The notes: generated by a model from the letters alone, not told the origin. A DNA stretch of 29,815 nucleotides from Deltaproteobacteria bacterium (GCA_016927815.1 JAFGLY010000169.1:1-29815); one strand, 5' to 3'; counted from the stretch's first letter, positions 5,640 through 29,724 are shown. Program-made: numbers and translations.

Positions 5640-5673
5640 GGATCCCGACGGGTGGCCTCCGGGGTCCGGCCCG

Positions 5674-7155: not shown

Positions 7156-7159
7156 AGGA

Positions 7160-9117: not shown

Positions 9118-9273
9118 GGAAGCCTCTATGCAAGGGGGCGCGACGTACGGCCCCGGGTCGGAGGCACCTATCATCGCCGGGGACGGGCGTCCCCAGGGTC
9201 GCGGGCGCGGATCGTCCCCGGGAGCCGGGCGATGGGATAACAACGCGCGTCTACCGATCGCCGGGAGTCCGCC

Positions 9274-10701
9274 GTGCCCTCCCCTCTCCCGCCGGACGAA
9301 GCCTCCAGCCGGCCCCTCGCCCTGATCCTCGCCGCCGGTCTCGGCACGAGGATGCATGCCTCGGTCGCGAAGGTGCTCCATCCGCTGTGCGGTCGTCCCA
9401 TGGTGTGCTGGGTCGTGGACGCGGCCCGCGAGGCCGGTTGCACGCCCGTGGTCGTGGTCCATCACCAGGAGGACGCGGTCCGGGCCGCCCTGCCCGGGGT
9501 CGCGTGCGTGCGCCAGGAGGCGCCGCGAGGCACCGGCGACGCGGTCCGAGCCGCCCGAGCCGTCCTGCCCGCCACGGGCACCGTCCTGGTGCTACCCGGC
9601 GACACCCCGCTGGTCCGGCCGGCCACCCTGGCGGACCTCCTGGTCCGCCACCCGGGCCGGGCCTGCACGCTGCTCACCCTGCATCCGGCCGACCCCGGGG
9701 CCTACGGCCGCGTGGTGCGGGAGGGCGACCGCGTCCTGGGCGTGGTGGAGGCCGCCGAGGCCACGCCGGTGGAGTTGGGCATCCAAGAGGTGAACGCGGG
9801 CATCTACGCCCTCGACGCCGCCTGGCTCGTGGACCGGGCCCTGCCCGCGCTCCGGCCCCACCCCCCCAAGGGCGAGTTCCACCTCACGGACGTCGTGGCA
9901 CTCGCCGCGAAGGAAGGCCGGCTCGACGCATACGGGTCCGACGATCCGGAGGAACTGGCTGGCGTCAACGACCGGTTGGCCCTGGCGCACGCGGAGGACG
10001 TGCTCCAGGCGCGCATCCTGGCGACCCACGCCCTGGCGGGCGTGACCTTCCAGCGGCCTGCCACGATCCGGGTGGAGGCAGGCGTCGTGCTCGCCCCCGA
10101 CGTCGTGGTAGAGCCGGGCGCGGTGCTCGCCGGCAGCACCGTGGTGGGCGCGGGCGCCCGCATCGGCGCCCACGCCGTCCTATGCGACACCGTCGTGGCC
10201 CCAGGGGCGCGCGTGGAGCCGGGTTCGATCTGCGAGGGCGCACGCGTGGGCGAGGAGGCGGTGGTCGGACCCATGGCCCACCTGAGACCGGGCGCGGTCC
10301 TCGAACGGCGTGCGCGCGCAGGCAACTTCGTGGAGGTGAAGGAGGCGGTGCTGGGCGAGGGGGTCCGCGCCTCCCACCTGTCCTACCTGGGCGACGCCAC
10401 GGTGGGAGAGGGCACCAACGTGGGCGCGGGCACCATCACCTGCAACTACGACGGGTACCAGAAGCTGGCGACCGTGATCGGCAAGGACGTCCTCATCGGA
10501 TCGAACACCGCCTTCGTGGCTCCGGTGTCGGTGGGCGACCACGCGGTGATCGGGGCGGGCAGCGTGGTGACCCACGACGTGCCGGCCGACGCGCTGGCCG
10601 TGGGCCGGGCCCGCCAGGTGACCCACCCGGATGCGGCCCCGCAGGTCCGGGAGCGCTTCCGCTCACGGGCCGCGAGCGCCGGGAGGGACCCCAAGCGGTG
10701 A
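9274..10701 (+). CDS. glmU: Bifunctional UDP-N-acetylglucosamine pyrophosphorylase / glucosamine-1-phosphate N-acetyltransferase
   Basis: GTG start at 9274 with GGGAG 7 nt upstream. N-terminal nucleotidyltransferase motif [11 protein letters not shown], then a left-handed beta-helix hexapeptide-repeat C-terminal half (many [LIV]G.... repeats, [14 protein letters not shown]). Confidence 0.85.
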
Positions 10702-15900: not shown

Positions 15901-16065
15901 GTCGATGCGGAAGACCCCCCACTCGTCGGTCCGGACCTCGGTCTCGCCCGCCCACACCCGGGCGTCCGGCACCGGCGTTCCGTCGACGTCGAAGACCACC
16001 CCCGAGAGGGATCCGGTCTGGGCCAGGGCGGCGCCCGCCAGGAGCAGGAGGGCGATCAAGGACAC
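12991..16065 (-). CDS. TonB-dependent outer-membrane transporter with N-terminal carboxypeptidase-regulatory-like (CarboxypepD_reg) domains (Oar-like)
   Basis: Proposed GTG at 16063-16065 (GGGGGAG 7 nt upstream) gives signal peptide MSLIALLLLAGAALA-QTG. Two roughly 80-aa CarboxypepD_reg-like beta-sandwich modules follow (GSLSGVVFDVDGTPVPDARV…; GTVVGTVTDRSAGVPLADVRLFV…). The Plug domain (AVSDVLGAEQMTRAGDSDAAAALKRVTGLTVIGGRYVYVRGLGDRYSSTLLN) is followed by a long beta-barrel. The 5' extension to 17079 overlaps the TPR gene and is spurious. Confidence 0.8.
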   Translation of the reverse strand: MSLIALLLLAGAALAQTGSLSGVVFDVDGTPVPDARVWAGETEVRTDEWGVFRIDLLPGRVEVHVEAPGLPVAAVSEVPVAAGRTTEMLVTVGAGEPQVHLEAPSVEEAVAVVPAGPPGTVVGTVTDRSAGVPLADVRLFVRGAGAAATTAADGTGSLTLPAGTWEVTAIRAGYEAHTQTVRVVPGEARSLSFSLEKIGLVLSDLTITAPRITGGTASLLDERKEAAAVSDVLGAEQMTRAGDSDAAAALKRVTGLTVIGGRYVYVRGLGDRYSSTLLNDSALPSPEPEKRVVPLDLFPTALIEAIVVQKTFSPDRPGEFGGGVVEIRTRSIPETPVLSLGVSGTWVGGATLSDARVAPSGPTDWLGVGAGWRALPAEVAEASAEQPLKSKGIFSDLGYSPEELERYGEMIPNRWTHEARTLPPDLGLTASAGRRWKVGEAELGALGALVYSNAWNVEEGVRTVYAAGLDRLQVARRTAFVDTSNRVRVGGALSLGLDWRDVVRFSSTTLINRASQGTALRWTWDDPEGSSDTYNERIDWVEQQLAFEQLALDVDLGRVEAAARYALAFATRLEPDRREWTYLDTEEGLVLSQRGGWNDIQYQTLDDTTRDLRLDLAWHLPRVGHDTVIKVGGARASRDRASTVRRFSYGFKGTEGIDLTAPIDQVIVPSNIGAEEEGDPGYLQIEENTANSDDYTASQSLRGAYGMIDAAWTSRLRTLAGLRYEHSVQGVTTFELFDTSKEPVEATLESRDVLPAATVTIGLGNAADPDGMLLRAGYGRTLSRPEFRELTEVAYYDYRTGRSLYGNPDLERATIDNLDLRWEWYPRAGESLSVGAFFKYFDHPIESVVAVSAVSGSLGTFDNATSATNLGAELEFRQRLDALLPLLEDVYASSNVSLISSKVDLSDTEGNQTSEERPLQGQSPWVVNAQLSYENPDVRTSVSLLYNAFGPRIVEVGKSGIPDAYEEPVHRVDMVATQGFGPHWQVRLKVSNLLDWPSRQTVAGNVTEETRDGRSVGLSLTWTP

Positions 16066-17198
16066 GCTCCCCCGGACGTGCAGGTCTCCATGGCCACCCG
16101 CAACTGGGTGGCCCTGGCGTAGGCCTCGGGCTCGCTGATGGTCGCCAGCCAGCGCTCGGACCGGTCGAACGCGCCCAGGTGGAACCAGGCGAAGGCCAGA
16201 CCGTAGGCGATGCCGTCGTCGTCGCCCAGATCCAGGCGGAGCAGTCGCTCTTCGAGCGCGACGGCTCGCTCCCACTCCTCGCCCTCCAGGAGCAGGCCCA
16301 GGCGCTGCCGGGCCTTGGCCACGGGATCGACCACCTGACCGTTCATCCGCTGGGCGGCATCCAGGTCGCCCGCTCGGCGGTAGGCCTCGGCGGCCTCGAG
16401 TGCGAGCGCGGGGTCGAGCGTGGCCGCGCGCTCGAGGAATCGTCCCGCGTTGCGCGGCTGCCCGTCGTCGATCGCTGCGCGGGCCGACTGCACCAGCAGG
16501 TCGCGGTCGTTTCCCTGGCGGAGCAGGGCGGCCTCGAGGATGACCATCGCTTCCCCGGTGTCCCCGCCACGTCGAAGCGCCTCGGAGATGGCGATGGCGT
16601 CCTTCGCATCGGAGTCCTGACGGGCCAGGAGCGCTTCGCCATGCTCGCGCGCCTCCCGGAGGAGGCCGAGACGGACGAGCAGGAAGACCTGCTGGCGTCT
16701 CAGGTCCGGCTGGTCGGGAAGCCGGTTCGCCCCTTGCTCCAAGGCGTTCCAGGCCTCGGCCGGCCGGCCGATCTCCTCGTACGCCTGGGCTCGCAGCAGC
16801 CACGTACCGGGCAGGCTCTCCCCCATCTGGCCGGTGCGGTCGAGGGCCTCGAGCGCCCGCACGGGGTCCCTTGCCGCGAGGAGTGCCCGCGCGAGGTGCA
16901 ACTCGAGCAACTCCCGCCCCTCGGTCGCCGTCTCGAGGGCACGCTGGAACGAGACCGATGCCGCGATCGCCTTCTTCTCGTGCAGCTCGACGAGACCGCG
17001 GAGCATCCAGAGCCTCTCGGGATCGGCTCTCTCGGCATCCAGGGGGATTTCCGCCAGTATCTCGGAAGCCCGAGCCCACTGGCCCTCGCGGACGAGCAGG
17101 CCCGCGAGCGCGACCGGGTCCTCTTCGGGCACGGCCTCACGGGGCCTGGCCTCCGCCACGCCGATGAGGATCAGCCACAAGGCCAGCCAATGGCGCAT
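16056..17198 (-). CDS. TPR-repeat protein with signal peptide (TtpD-like component of the TonB2-type system)
   Basis: ATG at 17196-17198, MRHWLALWLILIGVAEA signal, then TPR-like helical repeats (Ala/Leu/Arg/Glu-rich, W/Y..A..G motifs). The stop overlaps the TBDT start by 10 nt; the start lies 3 nt downstream of the tonB stop. Confidence 0.75.
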   Translation of the reverse strand: MRHWLALWLILIGVAEARPREAVPEEDPVALAGLLVREGQWARASEILAEIPLDAERADPERLWMLRGLVELHEKKAIAASVSFQRALETATEGRELLELHLARALLAARDPVRALEALDRTGQMGESLPGTWLLRAQAYEEIGRPAEAWNALEQGANRLPDQPDLRRQQVFLLVRLGLLREAREHGEALLARQDSDAKDAIAISEALRRGGDTGEAMVILEAALLRQGNDRDLLVQSARAAIDDGQPRNAGRFLERAATLDPALALEAAEAYRRAGDLDAAQRMNGQVVDPVAKARQRLGLLLEGEEWERAVALEERLLRLDLGDDDGIAYGLAFAWFHLGAFDRSERWLATISEPEAYARATQLRVAMETCTSGGACP

Positions 17199-17200
17199 CG

Positions 17201-17830
17201 TCACTCCAGCGCGAAGCGCAGCGTCTGCCGGACGCGGACGGCCACGGGGGCGCCCTCCTGGCGCCCGGGTTCGAACGTCCACTCCTCGACCGCCATGACC
17301 GCCGCTTCGTCGAAGGTGCCCGGGGGCTCGGCCTCCACCACGTGGATGTCCTGTGCCGATCCGTCCACGTCGACCACGAAGCTCAGGGTGACGAAGCCCG
17401 AGAGCCCGAGAGCCCGAGCCCTCGCGGGGAAGGACGGCGGCTCCTGCCGGGTCGGGCGGGGAGGCACCTCCACCGCATCCTCGTCGATCACGGACGCTCC
17501 GAGATCCTGGACGAGCGCCTCCGTCACCCCGCTGAGCGCCAGGTCGGCGGCGTCGCCGAAGCCGAAGTCCAGGCCCTCCAGGCCCGCCGCGAGCAGAGGC
17601 GCCGCAGAGGGCCCCTTGCGTGCGGCCTGGCGGGCGGCCCCGGTCCGCCGCGGGCGGGACGCCCTCTGGGCGGCAGGTCGAGCGGGCACGGCGATCTCCT
17701 GGACCACGCTCACGGGCTCCAGTGCACGCTTCTCCACCTGGGCGTTCATTCCGAGGCTCAGCGCACACACGCCCGCCGTCCCCAGAACCGCGATGCCCAT
17801 GGCAGCGAGATGGCGCAGCAGGTCAGCCAT
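17201..17830 (-). CDS. tonB: TonB-family energy transducer
   Basis: ATG at 17828-17830 overlaps the exbD end (8 nt). N-terminal TM anchor (LAAMGIAVLGTAGVCALSL), a Pro/Ala/Arg-rich spacer, and a C-terminal TonB_C fold (ARARALGLSGFVTLSFVVDVDGSAQDIHVVEAEPPGTFDEAAVMAVEEWTFEP). Confidence 0.75.
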   Translation of the reverse strand: MADLLRHLAAMGIAVLGTAGVCALSLGMNAQVEKRALEPVSVVQEIAVPARPAAQRASRPRRTGAARQAARKGPSAAPLLAAGLEGLDFGFGDAADLALSGVTEALVQDLGASVIDEDAVEVPPRPTRQEPPSFPARARALGLSGFVTLSFVVDVDGSAQDIHVVEAEPPGTFDEAAVMAVEEWTFEPGRQEGAPVAVRVRQTLRFALE

Positions 17831-18230
17831 CCTCGGCGTCCGTGACCACACCGATTTCCTTCGCGCCTCCCAGCCGGCACTGATCGACGACCTCGACGAG
17901 CTTTTCGGCCGTGACCCGCCGGTCGCTGACCACGAGCACCGTCTTGTCGCCGCTCCGGGAGAGCGCATCGCGGACCCGGCTCTGGACCATCCAGGGCCGG
18001 ACGGGCGTCTCGTCGATGTAGACCGCGGCGGACCGGTCGATGAACACCCGGAGCGCCCGGGTGTTTGCCGGCGAGGCGCTCTGGGCGCCCGGGCGCTCGA
18101 TCTGCAGTTCGGCATCCTTGGCAAAGGTCGTGGTGACCATGAAGAAGATGAGCAGCACGAGGATGCAGTCGATGAGGGGCACCACGTCGATGTGTGGGTC
18201 GCTGTGGGGGGCGTGCTGTCGCCGGCTCAT
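17823..18230 (-). CDS. exbD: ExbD/TolR biopolymer transport protein
   Basis: 135 aa, MSRRQHA…IDVVPLIDCILVLLIFFMVTTTF (single TM). Periplasmic domain carries the ExbD signature (LRVFIDRSAAVYIDETPV). ATGA overlap with the upstream exbB stop. Coordinates are taken from ORF-frame arithmetic. Confidence 0.8.
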   Translation of the reverse strand: MSRRQHAPHSDPHIDVVPLIDCILVLLIFFMVTTTFAKDAELQIERPGAQSASPANTRALRVFIDRSAAVYIDETPVRPWMVQSRVRDALSRSGDKTVLVVSDRRVTAEKLVEVVDQCRLGGAKEIGVVTDAEDG

Positions 18231-18835
18231 GCGGGCACCCGCTTCAGGCTGCCCGAGTAGATGGCCTTCAACTCCTCGAGCTCCAGGCTGAGCTTCTGCT
18301 CGAAATGGTGGAGGACGCCGCCCATCAGCAGACCCGGCACGGCGATCGCGAGGCCCATCTGGGTTGCGTACAGGGCCTCGACGATGCCTCCGGCGATGCC
18401 CTCCGAGGCGGTGGAGGTCATGGACTGTCCCAACGAGCCGAAGGTCTCGATGAGCCCGGTCACCGTGCCGAGCAGGCCGAGCAAAGGCGACATGGCCACC
18501 AGGCATTTCACGAGCATCGTCCCGCGCTGGAGGCTCTCCTCGAGGTCGGCGAAGGCCTCGTCCAGGAAGGGACGGGGAACCGGGCCGCCGAATCGCCGCC
18601 AGAGGGCTGCGCCCCGGCTTGCCGCCTCTCCGATGACGCCCTGGGCACGCCCCTCCGGCCTGACCCGCCATGCAGCCACCAGGGTCCTCAGGTCGCGCCG
18701 ATCCCCCCGCCGGAGCACGAGCAAGCGCTCCCCGAGGGCGAACCAGAGCACGAAGGCGGTGGTGAAGAGGGCGGGCATGACGACGCCTCCCCCCTGCCAG
18801 AGGTCGTAGACCTGGAGCAGGAGGGAATCACTCAT
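18227..18835 (-). CDS. exbB: MotA/TolQ/ExbB proton-channel protein
   Basis: 202 aa, three TM segments with the MotA_ExbB motif (MSPLLGLLGTVTGLIETFGSL…GIAGGIVEALYATQMGLAIAVPG). The start ATGAGTGA overlaps the stop of the upstream long ExbB-like gene. Confidence 0.8.
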   Translation of the reverse strand: MSDSLLLQVYDLWQGGGVVMPALFTTAFVLWFALGERLLVLRRGDRRDLRTLVAAWRVRPEGRAQGVIGEAASRGAALWRRFGGPVPRPFLDEAFADLEESLQRGTMLVKCLVAMSPLLGLLGTVTGLIETFGSLGQSMTSTASEGIAGGIVEALYATQMGLAIAVPGLLMGGVLHHFEQKLSLELEELKAIYSGSLKRVPA

Positions 18836-20174
18836 TCGCCACCAGGAGCCGTTCGACGGGGTCCTCGTACGCGCATTCCTGTTCGGACCGCTGGAGGTCG
18901 AATGCGTTGACCAGGGCCAACGCCCCGCGTTCGACGGTGTTCTTCACGGAACTGCCGACGCTGGCCAGGAGGTTCCCGACGAGCAGGGTGGGGATGGCCA
19001 CCGCAAGACCCATGGCCGTGCAGACCAACGCCTCTGCGATGCCGGCCGACATCAGCTTCGGATTTCCGGTTCCGTGCTCGGTGATGACGTTGAAGGTCGC
19101 GATCATGCCGGTGACGGTACCGAGCAGCCCCAGCAGGGGAGCGCCGGCCGTGATGACCACCAGGGCCGAGGCGAAGCGGTCGATAAGCGGCGTCTCGCGG
19201 AGGATGGCCTCGTCCACCACGCGATCCAGCTCCTCTCGGGAACGGTGTGCGTTCTCGAAGACCGCCTTCAGCACCCGAGGGATCGATCCGCCCCGCTTCC
19301 GGAGAAGGCTCAGGGCCTCCTCGAGCCGGTCGGCCCGAACCCGTTCGGTGACGGCGTTCACGAGCGGCATGCCGCCGCGCCTCGCGAGCGCGAGCGTGCC
19401 GGCCCGCGAGAGCGCGAGAAGGGCGCTCAAGCAGCCGAGCCCGAACAGCACGTACCCCATGGCGCCCGCATCCTCGAGCACCGAGCCGAGCCCCGTCTCC
19501 TTCTCCTTTTCGATGGTCAGGCGGTCCGGCTCGAAGAGGTGGACCTCCAGATCCGCGGGTCGCTCCCCGGCGGCGAGCGCCGCGGCCGTCGCCTGGCCGA
19601 ACCTCCTTCGGAGCTGGAGCTTTCCCTCGGCCACCGGGGCCAGCGCACCCGATCCCTCATCGGATACGCCCCAGGCGGCGACCCGGCCCCAACGGAAGAT
19701 CCGTCCCTGGACCTGCTGGCCCTCGGGAAGGAAGAAGGCCCCCTCCTCCGAGCGGATCGCGCCCGTCTCGGCCAGGCGCTCGGCCGAGGCGCGGAAGATG
19801 AGCGGGATGGCCGTGGTGGGGTCGTCGAGCGGGTCGAGGTCGAGCGTGTCTTCCGCCTGCTGGAGGGTGGACGAGAGCACGGAGTTGGCGTCGTCCATCT
19901 CCCCGAGTTCGCGATCCACGATGTCGCGCTCGTCCTCGGCGAGGTCGGCCTCGTGGGCCGTGGAGACGAGCTTCGCCTGGACGGTTTCCAGACGAGCGTT
20001 CGCCTGGGCCACGCGCTGGGCGGCCTCCCCGCTCATCTCCTGGAGCCGCTCCTCGAGCTCCCGCTTCTCCGCGCTCAGGTAGGCGAACTCCTTCTGATAG
20101 GCGGCGTCCAGGCTGGACGCCATGGCCCCTGGGTCGGTGGCCAGGGCTGCGCCGAGGAGACAAAACAGGATCAT
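18828..20174 (-). CDS. Long MotA/TolQ/ExbB-family protein with about 230-aa N-terminal periplasmic coiled-coil extension (TtpC-like)
   Basis: ATG at 20172-20174, signal peptide MILFCLLGAALA. The N-terminal half is a Glu/Arg/Ala-rich coiled coil. The C-terminal half holds three TMs and the MotA_ExbB channel motif (APLLGLLGTVTGMIATFNVI…GIAEALVCTAMGLAVAIPT). This architecture equals TtpC of Vibrio TonB2 systems. Confidence 0.75.
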   Translation of the reverse strand: MILFCLLGAALATDPGAMASSLDAAYQKEFAYLSAEKRELEERLQEMSGEAAQRVAQANARLETVQAKLVSTAHEADLAEDERDIVDRELGEMDDANSVLSSTLQQAEDTLDLDPLDDPTTAIPLIFRASAERLAETGAIRSEEGAFFLPEGQQVQGRIFRWGRVAAWGVSDEGSGALAPVAEGKLQLRRRFGQATAAALAAGERPADLEVHLFEPDRLTIEKEKETGLGSVLEDAGAMGYVLFGLGCLSALLALSRAGTLALARRGGMPLVNAVTERVRADRLEEALSLLRKRGGSIPRVLKAVFENAHRSREELDRVVDEAILRETPLIDRFASALVVITAGAPLLGLLGTVTGMIATFNVITEHGTGNPKLMSAGIAEALVCTAMGLAVAIPTLLVGNLLASVGSSVKNTVERGALALVNAFDLQRSEQECAYEDPVERLLVANE

Positions 20175-20926
20175 GACCCAGCTCCCGGGTCGGGGAGCGT
20201 GAAGTCCCCGCTGCGCACGCCGTGCGCGACCTTGTTGAAGAAGCTCTCGACCGCCCTCTGGTCTTCACGCAAAGTCAGCGCCTTCCACGTCCAACCCTCG
20301 GCCGAGCGCACCGCCGTCCCGTACAGGCCGCCGTCCGTCCGGAAATACAGCGCCACCATGCCGAGTCGAGCCACGTCGGCCAGCACCTCCTGCCCGTCCA
20401 GCGGCACGATCTGTCGATCCAGGCCGTTCTCGCGGGTGAGGCGGAGCTCGTCCTCGGTGAACGCCCAGAGACGTGCCGTCGCGCCCTCCGGGGAGATCAG
20501 GCCCGAGGCGAGCTGGTCCTGGATCCTGTCCAGCTCCGCCTGCCGCTCGGCCAGGTGGAAGGGCAGGCTGAAGTCCACGGCGGTCCGGATCCGCCGGATG
20601 GACTCCAGGAGGGCCGGGGTGAGCGTCTCACCGCGCGTGCTCGAGCGGGCCAGCTCCGCCCGACTGGCGTCCACCTCGCCCCGGACCTGGGAGAGCCTGA
20701 GCTCCTCACGCCGGAGCTGGACCTCCACCTCCATCACCTGCGCCTCGACGGCCTTGATCCTGGCCCTCGTGTCCTCCTTGGAGGCTGCGATCTCGCTGGA
20801 CAGCGTCTCCACCTCGCGGCGGAGGCGCGCCAGCTCGGAAGCGCGGTGACCCGCGGCCTCCTCTGCGAACGCGCCGGCTGGCAGGCAAAGCAGGAGGACC
20901 AGGACGAATCCTCTCCGGGGGCTCAT
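20171..20926 (-). CDS. DUF3450-like periplasmic coiled-coil protein (TtpB-like, TonB-system associated)
   Basis: ATG at 20924-20926, signal peptide MSPRRGFVLVLLLCLPAGAFA. A coiled-coil N-terminal half is followed by a conserved C-terminal block (LPFHLAERQAELDRIQDQL…VALYFRTDGG.YG). The 4-nt overlap with the downstream TtpC-like start and the position match DUF3450/TtpB genes of TonB2-type clusters. Confidence 0.6.
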   Translation of the reverse strand: MSPRRGFVLVLLLCLPAGAFAEEAAGHRASELARLRREVETLSSEIAASKEDTRARIKAVEAQVMEVEVQLRREELRLSQVRGEVDASRAELARSSTRGETLTPALLESIRRIRTAVDFSLPFHLAERQAELDRIQDQLASGLISPEGATARLWAFTEDELRLTRENGLDRQIVPLDGQEVLADVARLGMVALYFRTDGGLYGTAVRSAEGWTWKALTLREDQRAVESFFNKVAHGVRSGDFTLPDPGAGS

Positions 20927-20929
20927 GGA

Positions 20930-22267
20930 TCAGTCTTCGTCGTGGTGGGTCCAGCCGGCCGTCCAGTCGTTGGTCGCGTCAAACGCGCCCTTGTAGCTGA
21001 CCTGCTGGAAGAAGCTGTCCGAGGGGGCCTCGCCGCCGGTGGCGAGCACGGATCCGGACTTGAGCCGGAAGTCGGGCGCCGAGGGGTTCAGCGGGTCGAC
21101 CAGGCCCAGGTCGGGGGCGATCGAGTTGCCCTCGCCGCCCGTGAAGATGGGCTCCTCGTCCGTATCTTCGAAGGCACTGGCGCAGGCCAGCACCGAGTGG
21201 GTGATCCAGGCGTCCCCGCTCGTGAACCCGGAGAGGGTCTCGCTGTCGCGGAGGGACAGGCACGCCTTGGAGAAGTCCATCACCGCCAGGTTCTGGAGCT
21301 TCGGCTGCGTGCCCTTGCGGATGAGCATGCCGAAGTTGTCCTCCTTGAGCGCCTCGTCGCCCACGAGGGTGACGTTGACGATCGTCGGGGTGGTGAGGGG
21401 CTCGGCCGCGTAGTCGTCCGGGTTGTTGTCGCCCTCGAAGCCGTTGTTGCCCCCGCCGAGGATCTGCTGGACCACGGCGAACTGGATCTTGCCCTGGTAC
21501 CCGAGGTCCCAGTCGATCCCGTCGTCGCCGGGGGAGGTGCAGACCAGGTGCGTGGCGTTGACCGCCCCGCCCCAGAACTCGATGCAGTCGTCGAGGGTGT
21601 TGTGGACCTGGATGTAGTCGAGGGTGGTGCCGCTGCCCACGCCCTGCAGCCCGAGGCCGTTGACCTCGTTGGCCTTGCTGATCTCCGTGCCGCCGAACTC
21701 GATGACGACGTACTTCAAGGAGCCGCTGTCGTCGGCGTTGTCACTGCCGCCGTAGGTCCCGGTACCGCCCTCGCCCTCCGCCTCGCAGGGGGTGCTGCCA
21801 TCGGTGCAGGCGTTGATCTTCCCCAAACCGTTGATCACGAGGCCGCCCCAGTCTCCGCGCGCTCGCGAACCGACGGGCTGGTCGGAGGTGAAGACGATGG
21901 GCGCCGAGACGGTTCCCTCGGCGACGATGTTCGCGTGCCTGCTGATGATGAGCAGGCCGTTGGTGGCGGACTCACCGTAGATCCGGGTGCCCGGCTGGAT
22001 CCTCAGGGTCGTCTCGTTGACGTCGTCCCCGATGATCACGGCGCTGCGCAGCAGCCACGCCTTGTCGGAGGTGAGGACCATGTCCTCGGTGTAGGTGCCG
22101 GAGAGCACGCAGGCGCCACCCTCCTCGACGCAGTCCGCTACATTGCCGGTGTCGTCCAGGGTGTTGGTGTCGTCGGGAGTGTTGCTGTCGTGGGTGTCGC
22201 CCGTCTCCTCCCCGCCGTTGCACGCGACGAGGGGAACAAGGGCCAGAATTGCGATCAGATTGCGCAT
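20930..22267 (-). CDS. Lipoprotein, Asp/Asn/Gly/Thr-rich, predicted right-handed beta-helix-like fold; first gene of the TonB2-type operon
   Basis: ATG at 22265-22267 with GGAG about 6 nt upstream. Lipoprotein signal MRNLIAILALVPLVAC (lipobox LVAC). The mature protein is highly acidic and G/N/T-rich, with repeated short beta-strand motifs (GLLIISRHANIV, GGLVINGLGKI, KYVVIEFGG, GIDWDLGYQGKIQFAVV, PTIVNVTLVG) suggesting a parallel beta-helix. The stop lies 3 nt before the DUF3450 start. Confidence 0.7.
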   Translation of the reverse strand: MRNLIAILALVPLVACNGGEETGDTHDSNTPDDTNTLDDTGNVADCVEEGGACVLSGTYTEDMVLTSDKAWLLRSAVIIGDDVNETTLRIQPGTRIYGESATNGLLIISRHANIVAEGTVSAPIVFTSDQPVGSRARGDWGGLVINGLGKINACTDGSTPCEAEGEGGTGTYGGSDNADDSGSLKYVVIEFGGTEISKANEVNGLGLQGVGSGTTLDYIQVHNTLDDCIEFWGGAVNATHLVCTSPGDDGIDWDLGYQGKIQFAVVQQILGGGNNGFEGDNNPDDYAAEPLTTPTIVNVTLVGDEALKEDNFGMLIRKGTQPKLQNLAVMDFSKACLSLRDSETLSGFTSGDAWITHSVLACASAFEDTDEEPIFTGGEGNSIAPDLGLVDPLNPSAPDFRLKSGSVLATGGEAPSDSFFQQVSYKGAFDATNDWTAGWTHHDED

Positions 22268-22472
22268 GTTCGCTCCTGGTTGGAGGGGAAGGGATGGCTG
22301 TGGCCACCCGGTGTCGAGCGCCCAGGAGTCTACGGTCCCTGTTTGGCGGGACAGTGACGCCACGGCGGCGGGAGGATGGAGATTCGGGGGCATCCCAGGA
22401 CTTGCCGATTACCCCGATAGTGCCACTCACTTGGCCCGATCCTGTCTCATCCGGGGGATACCGTGGGCCCCT

Positions 22473-23177
22473 ATGGACGAAGCCATCCTCATCGTGGACG
22501 ACGAACCCGATCTGGTCGCCGCGCTGGACTATTCCCTGCGCCGCGAGGGGTTCGTCACGCGGACCGCAGCCTCCGGGCACGCGGCTTTGGAGGCCGTCGC
22601 GCTGGAGCCGCGTCCCGTCCTGGTGCTGCTCGACTGGATGCTGCCGGACCTCCCTGGGACCGAGGTGTTCCGGCGTCTCCGCAACGACCCCTCCACCGCG
22701 TCGATCCCCGTGGTGATGGTGACGGCCCGGGGGGAGGAGGTGGATCGGATCGTGGGTCTGGAGCTCGGGGCCGAAGACTACATCGTCAAGCCCTTCAGCA
22801 TCCGTGAGTTGGTGCTCCGGGTCCGCGCGGTGCTCAGACGGTCCAGGGTCGCCGGGCCCGACACGCCGTCTCCTCCGGACCGGATGGTCTCGGGCGCCCT
22901 CGTGGTGCACCGCGAGGCGCACCGGGCCTGGGTCGACGGCTCCGAGATCGACCTGACCGCCCAGGAGTTCCGCCTGCTCCTCGTGTTCCTGGACCACGCC
23001 GGACGAGCCCTGACACGCGAGCAGATCCTCGCGGACGCTTGGGAGGACGGAGTCAGCATCACCGAGCGTGCGGTGGATACCCACATCAAGCGACTGCGCC
23101 GCAAGCTCGGCACGTCGGGCGCGCGGATCGAGGCGATCCGCGGCGTCGGCTACCGTTTCTCGGCCAACGTCGAGTAG
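22473..23177 (+). CDS. OmpR/PhoB-family two-component response regulator (no cognate kinase nearby)
   Basis: ATG at 22473 (MDEAILIVDDEPDLV…). Receiver domain with phospho-acceptor context VLLDWMLPD and conserved T/K (VVMVTARG…YIVKPF). C-terminal winged-helix Trans_reg_C (LTAQEFRLLLVFLDHAGRALTREQIL…VDTHIKRLRRKL…VGYRF). Confidence 0.85.
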   Translation: MDEAILIVDDEPDLVAALDYSLRREGFVTRTAASGHAALEAVALEPRPVLVLLDWMLPDLPGTEVFRRLRNDPSTASIPVVMVTARGEEVDRIVGLELGAEDYIVKPFSIRELVLRVRAVLRRSRVAGPDTPSPPDRMVSGALVVHREAHRAWVDGSEIDLTAQEFRLLLVFLDHAGRALTREQILADAWEDGVSITERAVDTHIKRLRRKLGTSGARIEAIRGVGYRFSANVE

Positions 23178-23317: not shown

Positions 23318-24733
23318 ATGATCGTCACCTGCGAGCGATGCAACGCTCGGTACAAGCTCGACGACTCCCGGATCAAGGGCCGGGGTGCCCGGATCACCTG
23401 TCCGAGGTGCCACCACGTCTTCACGATCCTCGTCGATCCACCGGCGGAGAGGGCCGCTGAGCCCGCGCCCGATCCTGGGGTCGAGCCGGGGCCGCCCGAG
23501 GGCGGGAGCGGGCAGCACCTGCGTCCGTTGCAGGCCGCCCGGCTCGAGGTGCCCCAGGGGTCCGCCGATCGGCTCGACTTTCGGAAGGTGGGCATCGCCA
23601 CCTGGAAGGTCAAGGTCAAGAGCGGTCTCGTCTACGACTTCTCCGACATCCGGACGCTCCGGAAGTACATCCAGGATCACCGCGTCACCGAGGACGACGT
23701 CATCTCCTGGGACGGCCTCCGGTGGACGCGGATCGGCGACATCCCGAACCTGGACGCGTTCTTCCTGCAGGTCTACGAGGAGCGCGTGCCGGTCCCCGGG
23801 CCCGCTCTGGCGCAGGAGGAGGCCGAGGACGCCCCCACCATCGTCGTGGGCATGGGGACGCTCGGCTACAACCGCCCCACGGGAGTCTTCGAGCGGCCCG
23901 ACCTCGCATCCGACGCCTCGCTGGCGGAGGCGTCCGAACCGTCCTCCCCCGGCGACGCGCACATCCCCCGCTTCGTGGATCCCTTCGAGGCTCTCAAGAA
24001 GTCGCGTCTGAAAGCCAAGGGGCGAAGCAGTCCCGTGCAGGACCCCGGGACGGTACGGGGCGGCTGGCGCGTGCGCACGGCCTTCGTGGCCGGCCTGGCC
24101 GTGGTCACCCTCCTCGCGGTCGCCTGGTTCATCGGCTCCCGGCCCGCACCCGAAGCGCCCGCACGACCCGTGGCCACGACCCCCGCCCTTCCGGATGCCA
24201 GCGACTTTCGAGCGCAGATGCGGGATCGGATCGAGCAGCAACTGGAGCAGCGGGACCCGCTCCCACTCGAGCCCGAGCCCGAGGAAGCCCTCCGCCCGGT
24301 CGTACCCCCCGATGCGGCCCTCCGGCGGGGGACCTCCCCGGCCCTGACCTTGTCCCCGCCGAGCATCGCTCCTCCCTCGCCGGCCTCCGTGGCTGATCTC
24401 GCGGCCCGAGGTGACGCGTTGCGGGAGGCGGGCGACTGGGCCGCCGCGACGGACACCTACGCCCGTGCCGCGGCCCTGGATCCGGGCAATGCCGGGTACC
24501 GCTTCCGGTACGGAGAGGGGCTGGTCCACTCGGGTCGGCCGGCCGAGGCGCGGCAGGTGCTCGAGGCCGCCTCCCTGGCGGGCGTGGCGGCCGCGCACAA
24601 GCTCCTCGGCGACCTGGCCCGAGACCGGCAGGACGTCCAGGACGCCGTGACCCACTACCAGGAGTACCTGAAGAGCGAGCCTCCGGATCGGGCCGCGATC
24701 GAGCAGGTGCTTCGGGATCTTTCGGACGACTGA
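23318..24733 (+). CDS. MJ0042-type zinc-ribbon / DUF4339-like / single-TM / TPR multidomain protein
   Basis: ATG at 23318: MIVTCERCNARYKLDDSRIKGRGARITCPRCHHVF is the MJ0042-family zinc-finger signature. Next comes a DUF4339/GYF-like module (WKVKVKSGLVYDFSDIRTLRKYIQDHRVTEDDVISWDGLRWTRIGDIP), a Pro/Ala-rich linker, one TM helix (AFVAGLAVVTLLAVAWFIG), and a C-terminal TPR-like region (ALREAGDWAAATDTYARAAALDPGNAGYRFRYGEGL…). Confidence 0.7.
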   Translation: MIVTCERCNARYKLDDSRIKGRGARITCPRCHHVFTILVDPPAERAAEPAPDPGVEPGPPEGGSGQHLRPLQAARLEVPQGSADRLDFRKVGIATWKVKVKSGLVYDFSDIRTLRKYIQDHRVTEDDVISWDGLRWTRIGDIPNLDAFFLQVYEERVPVPGPALAQEEAEDAPTIVVGMGTLGYNRPTGVFERPDLASDASLAEASEPSSPGDAHIPRFVDPFEALKKSRLKAKGRSSPVQDPGTVRGGWRVRTAFVAGLAVVTLLAVAWFIGSRPAPEAPARPVATTPALPDASDFRAQMRDRIEQQLEQRDPLPLEPEPEEALRPVVPPDAALRRGTSPALTLSPPSIAPPSPASVADLAARGDALREAGDWAAATDTYARAAALDPGNAGYRFRYGEGLVHSGRPAEARQVLEAASLAGVAAAHKLLGDLARDRQDVQDAVTHYQEYLKSEPPDRAAIEQVLRDLSDD

Positions 24734-25251
24734 TGGACACCGTCTGCCCCGCGTGCCGCCGCGCCGGGCGCCCGCCCGTGCTCGAGATCCTGCTTTCTCC
24801 CGGCCGCTGCCGGAGCTGCGGCGCCCTCCTCCCCCCGGTGCCCGCCGAGGACGTGACCGAGGAGGGCACCCTGCCCCCGGTGCCCCCGTTCTCCACGGGA
24901 GGCGCCTGGATGCTGCGCTGCCAGGGACGCACCTGGCGCATCGCCAGCGACGAGGTCCTCCGGCGGTGGATCGTGGACCGGCGCGTGTCGGCCGGCGACC
25001 TGGTCTCCCTGGACGGCGTACGCTGGGAGCCGGTGGAGCGGCAGCCCGCGCTCCGGGACCTCCTCGCCGTGGTCGCGCGCCTCGGCGGATCCCACGCCAC
25101 CCGGCCGGCCGGCCTGAAAGAAGCTTCCACCCCCGAGACCGGCTGGACGACGGCCGTGGAGCCGGAGGGCGCCCAGCCGCCGCCCCGGTCCCAGATGGCC
25201 CCCCGCACAGGAGATCACCATGGCCGAGGACGAGTACTTCGCCAAGATTGA
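24733..25251 (+). CDS. Small zinc-ribbon (CxxC…CxxC) plus DUF4339-like domain protein
   Basis: ATG at 24733 overlaps the TGA of the preceding gene (TGATG). N-terminus CPACRR…CRSC (Cys4 ribbon), then WMLRCQGRTWRIASDEVLRRWIVDRRVSAGDLVSLDGVRWEPVERQPALRDLL, which matches the DUF4339 pattern. The C-terminal 40 aa are low-complexity and overlap the next gene by 32 nt; the true extent is uncertain. Confidence 0.5.
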   Translation: MDTVCPACRRAGRPPVLEILLSPGRCRSCGALLPPVPAEDVTEEGTLPPVPPFSTGGAWMLRCQGRTWRIASDEVLRRWIVDRRVSAGDLVSLDGVRWEPVERQPALRDLLAVVARLGGSHATRPAGLKEASTPETGWTTAVEPEGAQPPPRSQMAPRTGDHHGRGRVLRQD

Positions 25252-25519
25252 AGCCGAGAAGAAGGCTCGGCTCGCAGCCGACCTGAAGGCTCAGAAGGAC
25301 CGCACCGCCCTGGAGGAGCGCAAGGCACTCCACTGGCTCAGGTGCGGCAAGTGCGGCGCCGTGATGACCACCCGCATCTTCCGCGGCGTGGAGATCGAGG
25401 TCTGCCCGGAGTGCGGGGCGGTCCTGCTCGACCGGGGAGAACTGGAAGCCCTCTCCGGCAGGGACCGCAGCGGCTTCTTCGAGGCGCTCTCCGGCCTGTT
25501 CGGCCGGGAGTCTCCCTGA
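25220..25519 (+). CDS. zf-TFIIB-like zinc-ribbon domain protein (about 99 aa)
   Basis: ATG at 25220 with AGGAG 6 nt upstream. MAEDEYFAKIEAEKKARL… then CGKCGAVM…FRGVEIEVCPECGAVLLDRGELEAL, the PF13453-type (transcription-factor zinc-finger) pattern. Confidence 0.65.
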   Translation: MAEDEYFAKIEAEKKARLAADLKAQKDRTALEERKALHWLRCGKCGAVMTTRIFRGVEIEVCPECGAVLLDRGELEALSGRDRSGFFEALSGLFGRESP

Positions 25520-25629
25520 ACAGGTTCGTCCATGGGTCTGGGGGCGTTTCGGGCGCTGCGGATCCGAACCGGGAAGACCCGGAACCGTCCCCGGCTGACA
25601 GCTGACAGCCTCGACGGTCGGGCGCCGAA

Positions 25630-27447
25630 TCAGTACAGCACCTGCTCCTCGGTCATGGAGATCACCTCGTCGAAGGTGGTCTCGCCCATGGCCATCTTCC
25701 GGATGGCGCACTCCCGGAGCGTGAGCATTCCGTCGTTGAGCGCCTCCTTCTTGATCTCGGCCGCCGGTGCGCGCTCGGTGATGAGACGGGCGATCCGCGG
25801 CGTGACCGGCAGCACCTCGAACACACCCGTACGCCCGTGGTAGCCGGTGCCCCGGCACTTCGCGCAGCCCACGCCCCGCCGGACCTTGAGCTTGCGGTCT
25901 TTCGCGCCCGTGATCCGCAGGGCCAGGACCTGCTCCTCGGTGAGCACCTCGTCCACCGCGCAGTGCGGACAGATCCGGCGGACGAGGCGCTGGGCCACCA
26001 GGCCCTGGAGCACGCTCGCGACGAGGAACGGGTAGACGCCCAGGTCCAGGAGCCGAGTGACGCCGCTCGCGGCGTCGTTGGTGTGGAGCGTGGAGAGGAC
26101 GAGGTGCCCCGTGAGGGCCGACTGGACGGCGTTCTCGGCGGTCTCCGGATCGCGGATCTCGCCCACCATGATCACGTCCGGGTCCTGCCGCAGGAGGTTC
26201 TTGAGGGCGTTGGCGAAGGTGAACCCGATCCGGTGCTGGACAGCGATCTGGTTGAACGCCTCGTGGACGATCTCGATGGGGTCCTCGAGCGTGCAGATGT
26301 TGATCCGCGGGTTCTGGACGTGGTGGAGGGCCGAGTAGAGGGTGGTGGTCTTCCCGGAGCCCGTGGGGCCGGTCACCAGCACCATCCCCGATCGGGCGGC
26401 GAGCAGGCGCTCCACGACCAACAGTTCGCTCGGTAGGAATCCGAGGCCCCCCAGGTCCCGCACGTAGACCCCGGGGTCGAAGACCCGCAACACCACCTTT
26501 TCGCCGAAGGCGGTGGGCACGACGGACACGCGGAACTCCACCTCCTGTCCCTCGAAGGAGGTCTTGAACCGTCCGTCCTGCGGGAGGCGCCGTTCGGCGA
26601 TGTCGAGCCGGCCCAGCATCTTGATCCGACTCACGACCGCCGCGTGCACGGCCTTGGGCAGGCGGTGGATACGGTGGAGCACGCCGTCGATGCGCATCCG
26701 GACCCAGGCCTCCTCCCGCTTGGGCTCCACGTGGATGTCGCTGGCCCGCTGCTCCAGGGCGTAGTTGAGCAGGTACCAGACCGCCTGCACGATTGGCTGG
26801 TCGCTGGCATCGAGCTCGTGGGCGCCCTTCAGCCGGTAGAACTGCTCCAGGTTGCCCAGGTCGGGCAGGTCGGATCGGAACTCGGCCTCCGCAGCCTGCA
26901 TGGAGCGGCGGAAGCCATGAAACTCCACGAGGATCTGGAGGATCTCCGACTTGGAGGCCACCACCGGGCTCACCCGCTTGCCCTTGAACCGCTCGATGCT
27001 GTCCAGCAGTTCGCGGTCCCAGGGGTCGGCCACGGCCAGCGTCAGCCCATCGTCGGTCTCCTCGAGAGCGACCACGAGGTGCCGCTCGGCGAAGGGGCCC
27101 CCGAAGGACTCGGTCACGAGCCGGTAGTCGAGGGAAAGCGGGTCGAGGGTCACGAACGGGAGGGAGAGCGCTTCGGCCACCGCGCGGGTGATGGACTCCT
27201 CGTCGAGCAACGCCTCCGGCCGATCGGCCCGGTGGAAGCGGAACGACGCCACCAGCTCGATCTCGCTCACCGCGTAGGTGACCCGCTGCCGGCCGAGCAT
27301 CCGGCGCAGTTCGGCGCGCTTGTCGAGCAGGACGTGGCGGGCCTGGTCCCGGCCCCGGTTGCGGACGTCCTGTGCCTGGCCGGCTTGGAGCAGGCCCCGT
27401 GTCTGGAGCAGGGCGAGCAGGTCCTCGAGTCGCTTGAGGTGCGTCAC
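25630..27447 (-). CDS. GspE/PilB-family secretion ATPase (type II secretion / type IV pilus assembly ATPase superfamily) with N-terminal T2SSE_N/MshEN-like domain
   Basis: Proposed GTG at 27445-27447 overlaps the upstream membrane-protein TGA (GTGA). The N-terminal about 170 aa form a T2SSE_N-like domain. Walker A VLVTGPTGSGKTTTLYS, Asp box and His box (VLSTLHTNDAASG), Walker B DPDVIMVGEIRD, and a tetracysteine CPHC…CAKCRGTGYHGR zinc motif follow. In-frame upstream ATGs (to 27624) give Arg/Gly-rich junk that overlaps the membrane-protein gene. Confidence 0.85.
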   Translation of the reverse strand: MTHLKRLEDLLALLQTRGLLQAGQAQDVRNRGRDQARHVLLDKRAELRRMLGRQRVTYAVSEIELVASFRFHRADRPEALLDEESITRAVAEALSLPFVTLDPLSLDYRLVTESFGGPFAERHLVVALEETDDGLTLAVADPWDRELLDSIERFKGKRVSPVVASKSEILQILVEFHGFRRSMQAAEAEFRSDLPDLGNLEQFYRLKGAHELDASDQPIVQAVWYLLNYALEQRASDIHVEPKREEAWVRMRIDGVLHRIHRLPKAVHAAVVSRIKMLGRLDIAERRLPQDGRFKTSFEGQEVEFRVSVVPTAFGEKVVLRVFDPGVYVRDLGGLGFLPSELLVVERLLAARSGMVLVTGPTGSGKTTTLYSALHHVQNPRINICTLEDPIEIVHEAFNQIAVQHRIGFTFANALKNLLRQDPDVIMVGEIRDPETAENAVQSALTGHLVLSTLHTNDAASGVTRLLDLGVYPFLVASVLQGLVAQRLVRRICPHCAVDEVLTEEQVLALRITGAKDRKLKVRRGVGCAKCRGTGYHGRTGVFEVLPVTPRIARLITERAPAAEIKKEALNDGMLTLRECAIRKMAMGETTFDEVISMTEEQVLY

Positions 27448-29138
27448 GGGGGCAGGGTCTCCGGCACGGAACGTATCTCCGGCGCGGATGGGCAGAGACG
27501 GCGCACGTCCCAGGCGCCGCCCTCTGCCCCCGCCACGTGGGGCGCGCCCAGGACGGGCTCGAGCCGCGCCACCTCGGACGGCGTCCCGGCGATCACCGCC
27601 CATCCCTCCTGTCCGAGCGCACACAGGTCCGGTGGGTCCACGGCCATCCAGGCATCGCGGCTCGAAGCCACCCAGCGGCCCGTGTCGGAGCGCGCGGGCG
27701 GTGGGCCCGGCCGGTCGGGGTCGACCAGGAGCGAGCGGCCGTGCACGCGCTGGTCGAGAAGGGCCCGCTGGGGATGGATCCCCGGTCCTGCGGCGGGGAC
27801 CCAGACGAGCGGGCCCGGGGGCAGGTCACCGATGGCTGCCAGCACGTCCGGAGCCGAGGCGTCGGCCACCGGCAGCGGCCAGGGCAGCGGGGAGAGCAGC
27901 GCGTAGTCGAGGAGCACCGCGCCGGCCGCGATCGGGGCGACCGGGCGGCCGAAGCGGGTGCCGAGGCGCCGGCTGCCGCGGGCGGCCAGCATGGCCAGCG
28001 CCACCTGTCCGAGGAGCATCAGGCGGCCGTGGTGGTGGATGCGATTCCCCAAGGGCACGAGGTCCACCATCCACGCCGCGGGGTTGTCCACGCCGAGCGG
28101 GCTGCCGCCGGCCCTCAGGCGGGGGCCGGGCGCCAGGACCAGGGGAACGGCGAGCACCCACCACCACCGGCTGCGGCCCGCGGCGAGGGCCAGCGCCAGC
28201 GCCGCGATGCCCAGGTAGGCGGGGTGGAGCCGGACGACCGCCCCGGACGGAGGGGTGACGGGCCCGGGCGCCACGAACGACACCAGATCCGCACCGTCCC
28301 AGGGATTCAACGGCCAGAGCGGCTCGGGTCCCTCCACGCGCTGGCTCGTCTCTGGCCGGATCTCGCTCCAGGCCCTGGGCCCCAACAGGGCCACGGCCGG
28401 CGTGGCGAGGGCGGCTGCCAGGAGCGCGGCCGCCCCCCAGCGCCCCGCCTGCCGCGGCCGCCGCACGAGGGCGGCCAGGCCCGCCCCCAACGCGAGCAGG
28501 GACCCCATCAACGCCAGGTACGGGCCGCACCAGGCCAGGACGCCCAGACCGCCGCCCACGCCGGCCACCCACCGCCAGGACGGCAGGATGGGCGGATCCG
28601 TCTCCGCCGGCCGAGGGGGCACGGGCACCACCACCATCGCGGCCACCACGGCCAGGAGGCCGAGCGCGAGATCCTCCGTGAGCCCCGAGGCCACACTCCC
28701 GGCGAAGACCGGACCGAGCGCCAGGGTCAACCCCCCGATCCACGGGTGGCCCCCCGCCCGGCGGGCGGCCCAGGCGCCCCCGAGGAAGGCCCCGGCCACG
28801 GCGAGGACCTGGGCCAGGTTCCAGGCCGCGAGGATGCCCACCGCCCGGCTCGCCGCCCCGAACACCGCCGCGAGGAGCGGATCGATGGCGGCCCGCTCCA
28901 GGGCCACCGGAAGGAGCGCCGTGCGCGCGGGCCATTCGGGAAGCGCGAGGCCCCGCCACCACCAGGACCAGGCGTGTCCCCAGACCTCGCCGCCGCGCCA
29001 GGCGAGGATGGGCTCCCCCTCGGCAAAGGGCAGCCGGGCCGACGCGAGCCCCGCGAGCGCCAGGGCGCCGGCGAGCCAAAGGACCCACCGCTGTCCGAGC
29101 CGGGCCGACGCGCACGCCTTCGGGGAAGTCCGGGCCAT
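27444..29138 (-). CDS. Large polytopic (about 10-12 TM) Trp-rich integral membrane protein of unknown function, possibly GT-C-like
   Basis: ATG at 29136-29138 (MARTSPKACASARLGQRWVLWLAGALALAGL…). Many hydrophobic helices (AVFGAASRAVGILAAWNLAQVLAVAGAFLGG; LGLLAVVAAMVVVPV; GVLAWCGPYLALMGSLLALGAGLAALV; WWWVLAVPLVLAPG; LMLLGQVALAMLAA). Periplasmic-loop-like EGEPILAWRGGEVWGHAWSWWWRGL. Roughly 120-aa soluble C-terminal tail. The stop overlaps the GspE-like start. Confidence 0.65.
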   Translation of the reverse strand: MARTSPKACASARLGQRWVLWLAGALALAGLASARLPFAEGEPILAWRGGEVWGHAWSWWWRGLALPEWPARTALLPVALERAAIDPLLAAVFGAASRAVGILAAWNLAQVLAVAGAFLGGAWAARRAGGHPWIGGLTLALGPVFAGSVASGLTEDLALGLLAVVAAMVVVPVPPRPAETDPPILPSWRWVAGVGGGLGVLAWCGPYLALMGSLLALGAGLAALVRRPRQAGRWGAAALLAAALATPAVALLGPRAWSEIRPETSQRVEGPEPLWPLNPWDGADLVSFVAPGPVTPPSGAVVRLHPAYLGIAALALALAAGRSRWWWVLAVPLVLAPGPRLRAGGSPLGVDNPAAWMVDLVPLGNRIHHHGRLMLLGQVALAMLAARGSRRLGTRFGRPVAPIAAGAVLLDYALLSPLPWPLPVADASAPDVLAAIGDLPPGPLVWVPAAGPGIHPQRALLDQRVHGRSLLVDPDRPGPPPARSDTGRWVASSRDAWMAVDPPDLCALGQEGWAVIAGTPSEVARLEPVLGAPHVAGAEGGAWDVRRLCPSAPEIRSVPETLPP

Positions 29139-29199
29139 CCCGGGTCCGGTATCACGGGCCGGGCGAACCGGGCCGCTCCCAGCACGATAGGCGGTTTCC

Positions 29200-29724
29200 A
29201 TGGACACCCGCCTGCTTCTCCTCCTCGTCCTTGCCCTCCTCACGCCGCCCGCCGCCGGAGCCGGTCGTCGCCCCCGCCCCGCTGCCCGAGGGGTTCAGGT
29301 GGAGGCCGTGGGCGTGGTCCCCCTGGACGGCGGCGGCACCGTGCTGCTCGCCGACCTGGACCACACCCGCCTGGTGCCCATCTCCGTGGGCTCGACCGAG
29401 GCGCTGGCCATCGCGCTCCGTATCGAGCGCCGGCGCTACGAACGCCCGCTCACCTACGACCTGATCGATGCGATCCTGGACGGGATGGGCGGCGAGGTGG
29501 TGGAGGCCCGCATCGATGACCTCCGGAGCGGCACGTTCGTCGCCCACCTCACCTTCCGCGAGGGCCGTCGCTCCTTCACGGTGGACACCCGGGCTTCCGA
29601 CGCCATCGCGGTGGCGCTGGGTCGAGGCGTGCCGTTGTGGCTGGCGGCCCCGGTCCTGGACGGAGCAGGCCTGCCCTGGCCCGAGACGCCCCTCGTACCG
29701 GATCCCACAGCGCCCAGCCTGTGA
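29200..29724 (+). CDS. Bifunctional-nuclease (BFN/DUF151) domain protein with N-terminal signal peptide
   Basis: ATG at 29200, MDTRLLLLLVLALLTPPAAGAG signal-like N-terminus. The BFN domain follows (VVPLDGGGTVLLADLDHTRLVPISVGSTEALAIALRIERRRYERPLTYDLIDAILDGMGGEVVEARIDDLRSGTFVAHLTF). Confidence 0.7.
   Translation: MDTRLLLLLVLALLTPPAAGAGRRPRPAARGVQVEAVGVVPLDGGGTVLLADLDHTRLVPISVGSTEALAIALRIERRRYERPLTYDLIDAILDGMGGEVVEARIDDLRSGTFVAHLTFREGRRSFTVDTRASDAIAVALGRGVPLWLAAPVLDGAGLPWPETPLVPDPTAPSL

Follow-up and report, generated by a model that had tools for sequence, protein, structure and literature searches.

The locus considered here raises the question of whether a motor ATPase of the GspE/PilB superfamily and a membrane protein of quite another kind, encoded by overlapping genes, form one machine or act as two separate enzymes. 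It lies in a 29,815-bp NCBI contig (G+C ~72%) from a metagenome-assembled genome (MAG) labelled 'Deltaproteobacteria bacterium', the whole of which is called the window below. Two minus-strand open reading frames (ORFs) fill positions 25630-29138: the ATPase gene (25630-27447, 605 aa) and the gene of a 564-aa membrane protein (27444-29138) which, together with its unclassified family, is given the working name MEM. A first-pass annotation had described a complete ATPase whose GTG start is fused to the TGA of its partner at 27444-27447, and had proposed that the two constitute a tight, ATPase-powered machine. Both ORFs and the junction are indeed present as described. The preferred explanation, given a probability of about one half, is nevertheless that MEM and the ATPase are two conventional enzymes encoded in an ancestral operon within a conserved synteny block, and not a joint machine. 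It is favoured because the pair has been lost, split and relocated among related genomes, because the ATPase clade is wider than the MEM family and orphan, and because the ATPase is more conserved than MEM.

A scan of one genome per species identified 62 MEM loci, all of them in MAGs. Nearly all are labelled Myxococcota, Deltaproteobacteria or unclassified proteobacteria, and the implausible labels carried by some (e.g. 'uncultured Enterobacterales') are taken here as mislabels; the family is found only in uncultured Myxococcota. The window proteins were compared to these loci by tblastn, and the 53 loci with sufficient flank downstream of MEM were counted as informative. The ATPase gene is situated directly downstream of MEM, on the same strand and with a gap of <400 bp, in only 23 of the 53, and 0.9-3.8 kb downstream with other genes inserted in another eight (31/53 within 4 kb), while in 22 it is not found within 2.5-8 kb. 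The inserted genes bear no relation to the pair and frequently run on the opposite strand (MoaC, SIR2_2 and a fatty-acid desaturase); others are of the MopE type, and a PilZ-domain gene is found between the two homologues in L026 (5210-5962, plus strand). In the genome HK-STAS-MYXO-43 both genes occur on one 1.03-Mb contig, ~380 kb apart. Orthologous and sister ATPases also adjoin unrelated genes, and the pair itself is part of a longer synteny block. Pairing is thus not found wherever MEM occurs, the neighbourhood is not obligatorily conserved, and an obligate form of the two-gene machine first proposed is not supported.

The adjacency is nonetheless old. In the MEM tree it is seen in both major branches, with all ten loci of the window's own subclade adjacent (10/10), and the losses are scattered and affect even close relatives (L020 compared to L016 and L017), a pattern that suggests an ancestral pairing, repeatedly lost. 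Adjacency persists down to 39% MEM identity. The ATPase side was sampled through five orthologue loci, picked solely by the size of their contigs, and MEM is located upstream of the ATPase in two of these (L151 and L153). A divergent extracytoplasmic function (ECF) sigma factor gene occupies the upstream position in L152, neither a membrane gene nor synteny is seen in L069, and in L070 the ATPase start overlaps the stop region of a gene for a different membrane protein of 504 aa. The latter was considered as a MEM homologue and rejected, as a profile search gave nothing and the hhalign probability was 0.2%. Across the loci the ATPase is far more conserved than MEM, with identities of 64-86% versus 35-77%.

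The membrane protein had been portrayed in the first-pass annotation as a W-rich polytopic protein with a soluble C-terminal tail, closer to glycosyltransferases of the GT-C type than to any component of a type II secretion system (T2SS) or type IV pilus (T4P), and this portrait is borne out. MEM contains 29 Trp residues (5.1%), and its structure model shows ~11 transmembrane (TM) helices followed by a C-terminal alpha/beta domain of ~150 aa. On this high-confidence model the fold can be regarded as established as GT-C, with tabled figures against GT-C structures of 19.2 for AftA, 17.6 for AglB, 17.5 for Pmt4, 16.3 for STT3B, 15.6 for AftD, 15.3 for PglB and 14.5 for ArnT. MEM has no match in Pfam or NCBIfam, and hence no T2SSF domain; together with the GT-C fold this excludes a diverged GspF/PilC platform protein, which would have ~3 TM helices and large cytoplasmic domains. 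A profile search of PDB sequences likewise returned nothing. MEM is only 6-15% identical to the solved enzymes (AftA (8if8), AglB/PglB/STT3, PMTs, ArnT and AftD), from which it also differs by its lack of Pfam, NCBIfam and PDB sequence hits and its restriction to uncultured Myxococcota. It does not belong to the curated GT-C sequence families (PMT_2, YfhO, GT39, GT83, GT87 and others), although a few distant superfamily relatives show sub-threshold PMT_2, YfhO or DUF2079 matches. A word-indexed search recovered 47 homologues, none of them annotated, and when a profile was run against the representatives of 1.84 billion clusters, 1,767 matches had E < 1e-3, of which 99 reached E < 1e-30. MEM is therefore treated as a GT-C-fold membrane glycosyltransferase, as predicted by the model, of a family hitherto unclassified.

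A candidate catalytic site is located in the first periplasmic loop (residues 33-86; 28881-29042, minus strand), as delimited by the secondary structure of the model. In an alignment of 39 sequences, E51, G54, H55, W57 and D86 of this loop are invariant, as is S151-G152-L153-x-E155-D156 in the next external turn. GT-C enzymes carry conserved acidic residue(s) in the first extracytoplasmic loop, and E51 and D86 correspond to these, suggesting by position and conservation a catalytic role. The topology was derived by reading the model helices against the positive-inside rule (K+R in the loops), and with the odd number of TM helices it predicts a cytoplasmic N-terminus and a periplasmic location of the C-terminal soluble alpha/beta domain (residues 416-564; 27447-27893, minus strand, delimited by model secondary structure and loop charge). 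The predicted cytoplasmic loops are only 7-17 residues long, and MEM would for this reason offer little surface for the docking of a hexameric motor.

MEM is in addition usually one of a pair of GT-C proteins, since a distant paralogue is commonly its upstream neighbour. In 29 of 51 informative loci a divergent protein of ~600 aa, polytopic and without Pfam hit, is encoded just upstream of MEM (e.g. L001 8114-9952 (-) and L023 6114-7925 (-), and 27 other loci), and hhalign relates it to MEM with a probability of 98.2% (E 2.9e-14, 487 columns). Nine of these 29 loci have no ATPase neighbour. The paralogue may be a heterodimer partner of MEM, as in the paired GT-C enzymes Pmt1-Pmt2 and EmbA-EmbB, but this comparison is offered as an idea only. 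The window contains no such paralogue, as the contig ends 90 bp past the gene upstream of MEM, before the point where one would show. That upstream gene encodes a BFN-domain nuclease (29200-29724, plus strand; Pfam BFN_dom, 5.4e-28), is divergent from MEM as noted in the first pass, and is not found beside the pair in any of 68 related loci searched by tblastn. A gene for biosynthetic arginine decarboxylase recurs one or two genes upstream of MEM in L001, L003, L005 and L151; in the window it is the BFN gene which holds the position directly upstream.

The partner is a GspE/PilB-superfamily ATPase. The Pfam T2SSE domain covers residues 214-596 (25660-26808, minus strand) with 410.4 bits against a gathering cutoff of 24.9, which places the protein in the PF00437 superfamily, and a Pfam MshEN match (PF05157) covers residues 94-181 (26905-27168, minus strand) with 64 bits against 23.1 (1.3e-17). 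The core contains GPTGSGKT (Walker A) at residue 360 (26347-26370), EDPIE at 388, DPDVIMVGEIRD at 422 and TGH...STLHT at 446, followed by a tetracysteine motif with CPHC at 493 and CAKC at 528 (25855-25971). Walker A, the Asp box, Walker B with its catalytic Glu, the His box and the tetracysteine, which is of the extension type, are all invariant among 21 orthologues. To judge by these motifs, the protein is most likely a catalytically intact hexameric motor of the PilB/GspE type.

It does not fall within the curated TfpB, GspE or PilB families, however. Its best NCBIfam match is TfpB (NF053534), the accessory T4P extension ATPase of A. baylyi, which aligns over residues 42-598 (positions 24-581 of the 584 in the profile) with 619.8 bits but remains below the equivalog cutoff of 850. 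The scores for GspE (TIGR02533; 530.7 versus 630.25) and type IV-A PilB (TIGR02538; 518.7 versus 675.65) are also below their cutoffs, and the closest solved structures are Geobacter and Myxococcus PilB. The ATPase thus shares with PilB, GspE and MshE the T2SSE core, Walker A and B, the Asp and His boxes, the tetracysteine and an N-terminal alpha/beta subdomain, but differs in falling below the GspE and PilB cutoffs, in being encoded outside any gsp or pil operon, and in lacking the tandem 24-residue motif by which MshEN domains bind c-di-GMP. The first-pass annotation had credited the ATPase with a T2SSE_N/MshEN-like N-domain and the tetracysteine. Both are present, but the Pfam match spans the alpha/beta half of the MshEN domain only (in alignment, residues 79-183 correspond to 59-162 of Geobacter PilB). 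The c-di-GMP motif, sought as a tandem RLGxx(L/V/I)(L/V/I)xxG(L/V/I)(L/V/I)xxxxLxxxLxxQ forming a four-helix bundle, is absent from residues 1-200 in its strict as well as its published relaxed form (best position 8/11), and control by c-di-GMP through MshEN was rejected for this reason.

In place of that bundle the ATPase carries an Arg-rich, clade-specific extension of 93 N-terminal residues (27169-27447, minus strand), as defined by the alignment of orthologues. Residues 1-78 match no PDB sequence. The AlphaFold2 (AF2) model, used for the N-terminal region alone because the core is modelled with low confidence (mean pLDDT, the predicted local distance difference test score, of 67), predicts helices at 4-16, 22-51 and 62-67 (pLDDT 72-93), not four short helices. 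Many extension residues, among them G23, D27, V28, N30, R31, G32, R37, H38, L41 and D42, are invariant across the 21 orthologues.

The ATPase clade is broader than the MEM family and is orphan in all loci examined. Among the matches listed, orthologues with the 64-86% identity given above fall into >120 clusters at 90% identity, and a metagenome scan returned, again among the matches listed, mainly generic PilB/GspE relatives of 39-55% identity. The sister ATPases (49-55% identity; L072-L077) are likewise orphans, adjoining housekeeping genes. Up to 22 proteins with MshEN domains are encoded in M. xanthus alone (PMC5013675), which suggests that members of the phylum commonly possess additional ATPases of this kind.

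One argument for a link between the two proteins is the way in which their genes are joined. Both ORFs have coding-type G+C content at third codon positions (GC3, 0.86-0.98), and as this signal declines upstream of ~29153, the ATG at 29138 is taken as the start of MEM. At the junction, which reads CTGCCCCCGTGACGC on the minus strand, the TGA stop of MEM (27446-27444) overlaps the GTG start of the ATPase (27447-27445), with a GGAG 11 nt upstream. In public NCBI annotation the ATPase is given as 657 aa (25630-27624, minus strand), starting from an upstream GTG within the MEM gene, and an identical-sequence lookup of the 605-aa form consequently found no record. The start at 27447 is preferred on account of the orthologue alignments and of nine related loci which likewise have a GTG at -4. 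A 4-nt start/stop overlap is found at this position in ten related loci, the tenth (L027) using TTG/ATG, and the called genes also overlap in L001 and L153. A scan of 25300-29400 for promoters and terminators found none, as expected at 72% GC. The GTGA overlap (27444-27447) couples translation of MEM and the ATPase here, and the two are thereby probably co-expressed.

Matched co-expression is what would be expected of a direct machine in which the ATPase docks on MEM and powers glycan translocation or polymerisation. The ancestral adjacency, and the finding of no GspF/PilC among the window ORFs scanned, agree with such a machine, and the conserved N-terminal extension unique to this clade could bind a novel partner. 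The arrangement in L070 agrees with it too, since there the 504-aa protein whose gene overlaps the ATPase start has homologues carrying GT87, another GT-C family, so that a GT87-like protein occupies the position equivalent to that of MEM. In L070 three consecutive genes upstream of the ATPase (5539-10001, plus strand) encode membrane proteins: a GT87 enzyme, a protein of 459 aa whose family is unknown, and this 504-aa protein.

GT-C enzymes use lipid-linked donors and are not known to require ATP. This, together with the tiny cytoplasmic surface predicted for MEM, makes a direct ATPase-driven GT-C machine unlikely. The ATPase also outstrips MEM in conservation and occurs without it, the pair has repeatedly been lost and in one genome lies far apart, and neither a distant MEM relative (P0099) nor two GT87-like relatives on long contigs have an ATPase neighbour. 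A wider version of the idea, in which an ATPase of the type IV filament class has been recruited in uncultured Myxococcota to GT-C enzymes (MEM, its paralogue and the GT87-like protein of L070), in a new envelope system that would link cytoplasmic ATP hydrolysis with the assembly or export of periplasmic glycans or glycoproteins and would do without PilC/GspF, is considered unlikely. Should the ATPase and a GT-C enzyme in fact work jointly, a secretion-type motor would for the first time be linked with lipid-linked glycosylation, and the assembly of periplasmic glycans would be energised in a novel manner. The literature search found no description of an ATPase/GT-C pairing or of an orphan GspE in Myxococcota. 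The nearest known link of a T2SSE-type N-domain to glycan synthesis is NfrB, a glycosyltransferase which is activated by c-di-GMP and carries an MshEN domain at its C-terminus (PMC5013675, PMC8669469); it gives weak NCBIfam matches (25 bits) to the N-terminal region of the ATPase. NfrB is, however, one polypeptide, of the GT2 class, and its c-di-GMP motif is functional, whereas here two proteins are involved, the fold is GT-C and the motif is absent.

With two conventional enzymes, the favoured explanation, MEM would use a polyprenyl-phosphate-linked sugar as donor and transfer the sugar to a periplasmic acceptor. Its active site would be built from the invariant E51, H55 and D86 of loop 1 and from E155 and D156, and in most relatives it would be partnered with the divergently encoded GT-C paralogue. 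The ATPase would act in trans on a type IV filament machine, either a pilus or T2SS-like, encoded elsewhere in the genome, as TfpB does in Acinetobacter. MEM and the ATPase would be co-expressed through the GTGA overlap and may belong to the same cell-surface programme, but the ATPase would not energise MEM and the two proteins would presumably not be in direct contact.

TfpB drives pilus extension and is a PilB homologue whose gene, like that of the ATPase here, lacks the synteny of pilB with pilC. It shows that a motor of the PilB type need not be encoded beside pilC in order to power a pilus (PMC8213720; review PMC11656802). The ATPase differs from TfpB in its sub-cutoff score, in phylum and in its clade-specific 93-residue N-terminus, and a pilus role here is suggested by analogy. 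The orphan clade described here, large, highly conserved and distinguished by its N-terminal extension and by the lack of the c-di-GMP motif, strengthens, together with TfpB, the case that filament motors are commonly encoded at a distance from the machines they serve.

Several observations weigh against two enzymes that merely share an operon. The ancestral adjacency combined with a 4-nt overlap in ten related loci exceeds what would be expected from loose synteny, and the overlap of the L070 ATPase start with a different, GT87-like GT-C gene would otherwise be an odd coincidence. The ancestral same-strand adjacency, the conserved overlap and the L070 gene are in fact the strongest points for a functional link. 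Furthermore, the ~20-kb loci examined showed no genes of a pilus or T2SS, so that the trans partner of the ATPase is assumed rather than observed, and the score below the TfpB cutoff reduces that comparison to an analogy.

An indirect link within one pathway is ranked here as the main rival and judged possible, though short of probable. The ATPase would assemble a type IV filament or secrete its cargo, and MEM with its GT-C paralogue would glycosylate either of these on the periplasmic side. Assembly and modification would then be matched by co-expression, without physical contact between the two proteins. A precedent is TfpW, the GT-C pilin arabinosyltransferase of P. aeruginosa, which is likened to MEM by description, as a GT-C enzyme genetically tied to T4P biology. 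TfpW is, however, encoded beside its pilin substrate, whereas MEM is encoded beside a motor ATPase with no pilin gene here. Among the called genes of the related loci listed, no GspF/PilC, pilin, prepilin peptidase or secretin family was found. The claim that the window contains no other pilus or secretion genes holds for the ORFs scanned, none of which matched a T2SS or T4P family; the scan did not include every ORF, and some of the ORFs scanned have no Pfam hit.

Irrespective of how the two proteins relate, a GT-C family without Pfam or NCBIfam model is defined. Its core comprises ~100 representative clusters, all from uncultured Myxococcota, and it is usually encoded as two divergently transcribed paralogues.

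The gene order around the pair offers one more candidate for the true partner of the ATPase. The window and L007-L012, L029 and L030 have in common a block with the order MEM, ATPase, Zn-ribbon gene, Zn-ribbon/TPR gene, UvrD, NTP-transferase and aminotransferase. Three zinc-ribbon genes travel with the ATPase, in the window at 23339-24733, 24733-25251 and 25220-25519 (all on the plus strand), encoding an MJ0042-type Zn-ribbon/TM/TPR protein, a small Zn-ribbon protein which is GYF-like by eye, and a 99-aa Zn_ribbon_TFIIB protein (Pfam), the last being the convergent flank already noted in the first pass. Of 23 informative loci, 16 have the Zn_ribbon_TFIIB gene <=5 kb from the ATPase, a frequency no lower than that of MEM within 4 kb, and L151-L153 have it there as well. 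The ATPase's real partners could accordingly be the Zn_ribbon_TFIIB protein and the Zn-ribbon/GYF-like/TM/TPR protein, with MEM as a bystander. In L076 the sister ATPase is indeed followed by a gene on the same strand (7715-9424, plus) with Zn_ribbon_4, GYF_2 and DUF4013 domains, and the TPR protein of the window weakly matches a zinc finger of the MJ0042/GltJ type. The zinc-ribbon genes are, on the other hand, convergent to the ATPase and thus not co-transcribed with it, they are absent from L069 and L070, and the block also holds UvrD and other housekeeping genes and may represent plain synteny. We know of no functional precedent, and this partnership is held to be improbable, the last in rank among the explanations. 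The match of the TPR protein to the gliding-motility protein GltJ is faint and confined to the zinc finger.

The other window ORFs scanned include a deacetylase, PmbA/TldD, a radical SAM protein, an SPFH-GYF protein, an aminotransferase, an NTP-transferase, UvrD, a TonB-dependent receptor with TonB and ExbB, a response regulator and the Zn-ribbon/TPR protein. The UvrD helicase gene (10704-12965, plus strand) was delimited within a mechanical ORF of 9387-12965, its frame being set by frame-specific GC3 and tblastn synteny. The SPFH/Band-7 protein (5674-7209, minus strand) has a C-terminal GYF_2 domain and is a further GYF-domain protein of the window. A cluster at 12991-22393 encodes the TonB-dependent receptor (1362 aa, with CarboxypepD_reg domains), TonB, two ExbB/MotA proteins and a DUF3450 protein, and is followed by the response regulator, which is of the OmpR type (22095-23177, plus strand). 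This cluster and the regulator break a synteny block which is contiguous in the related loci.

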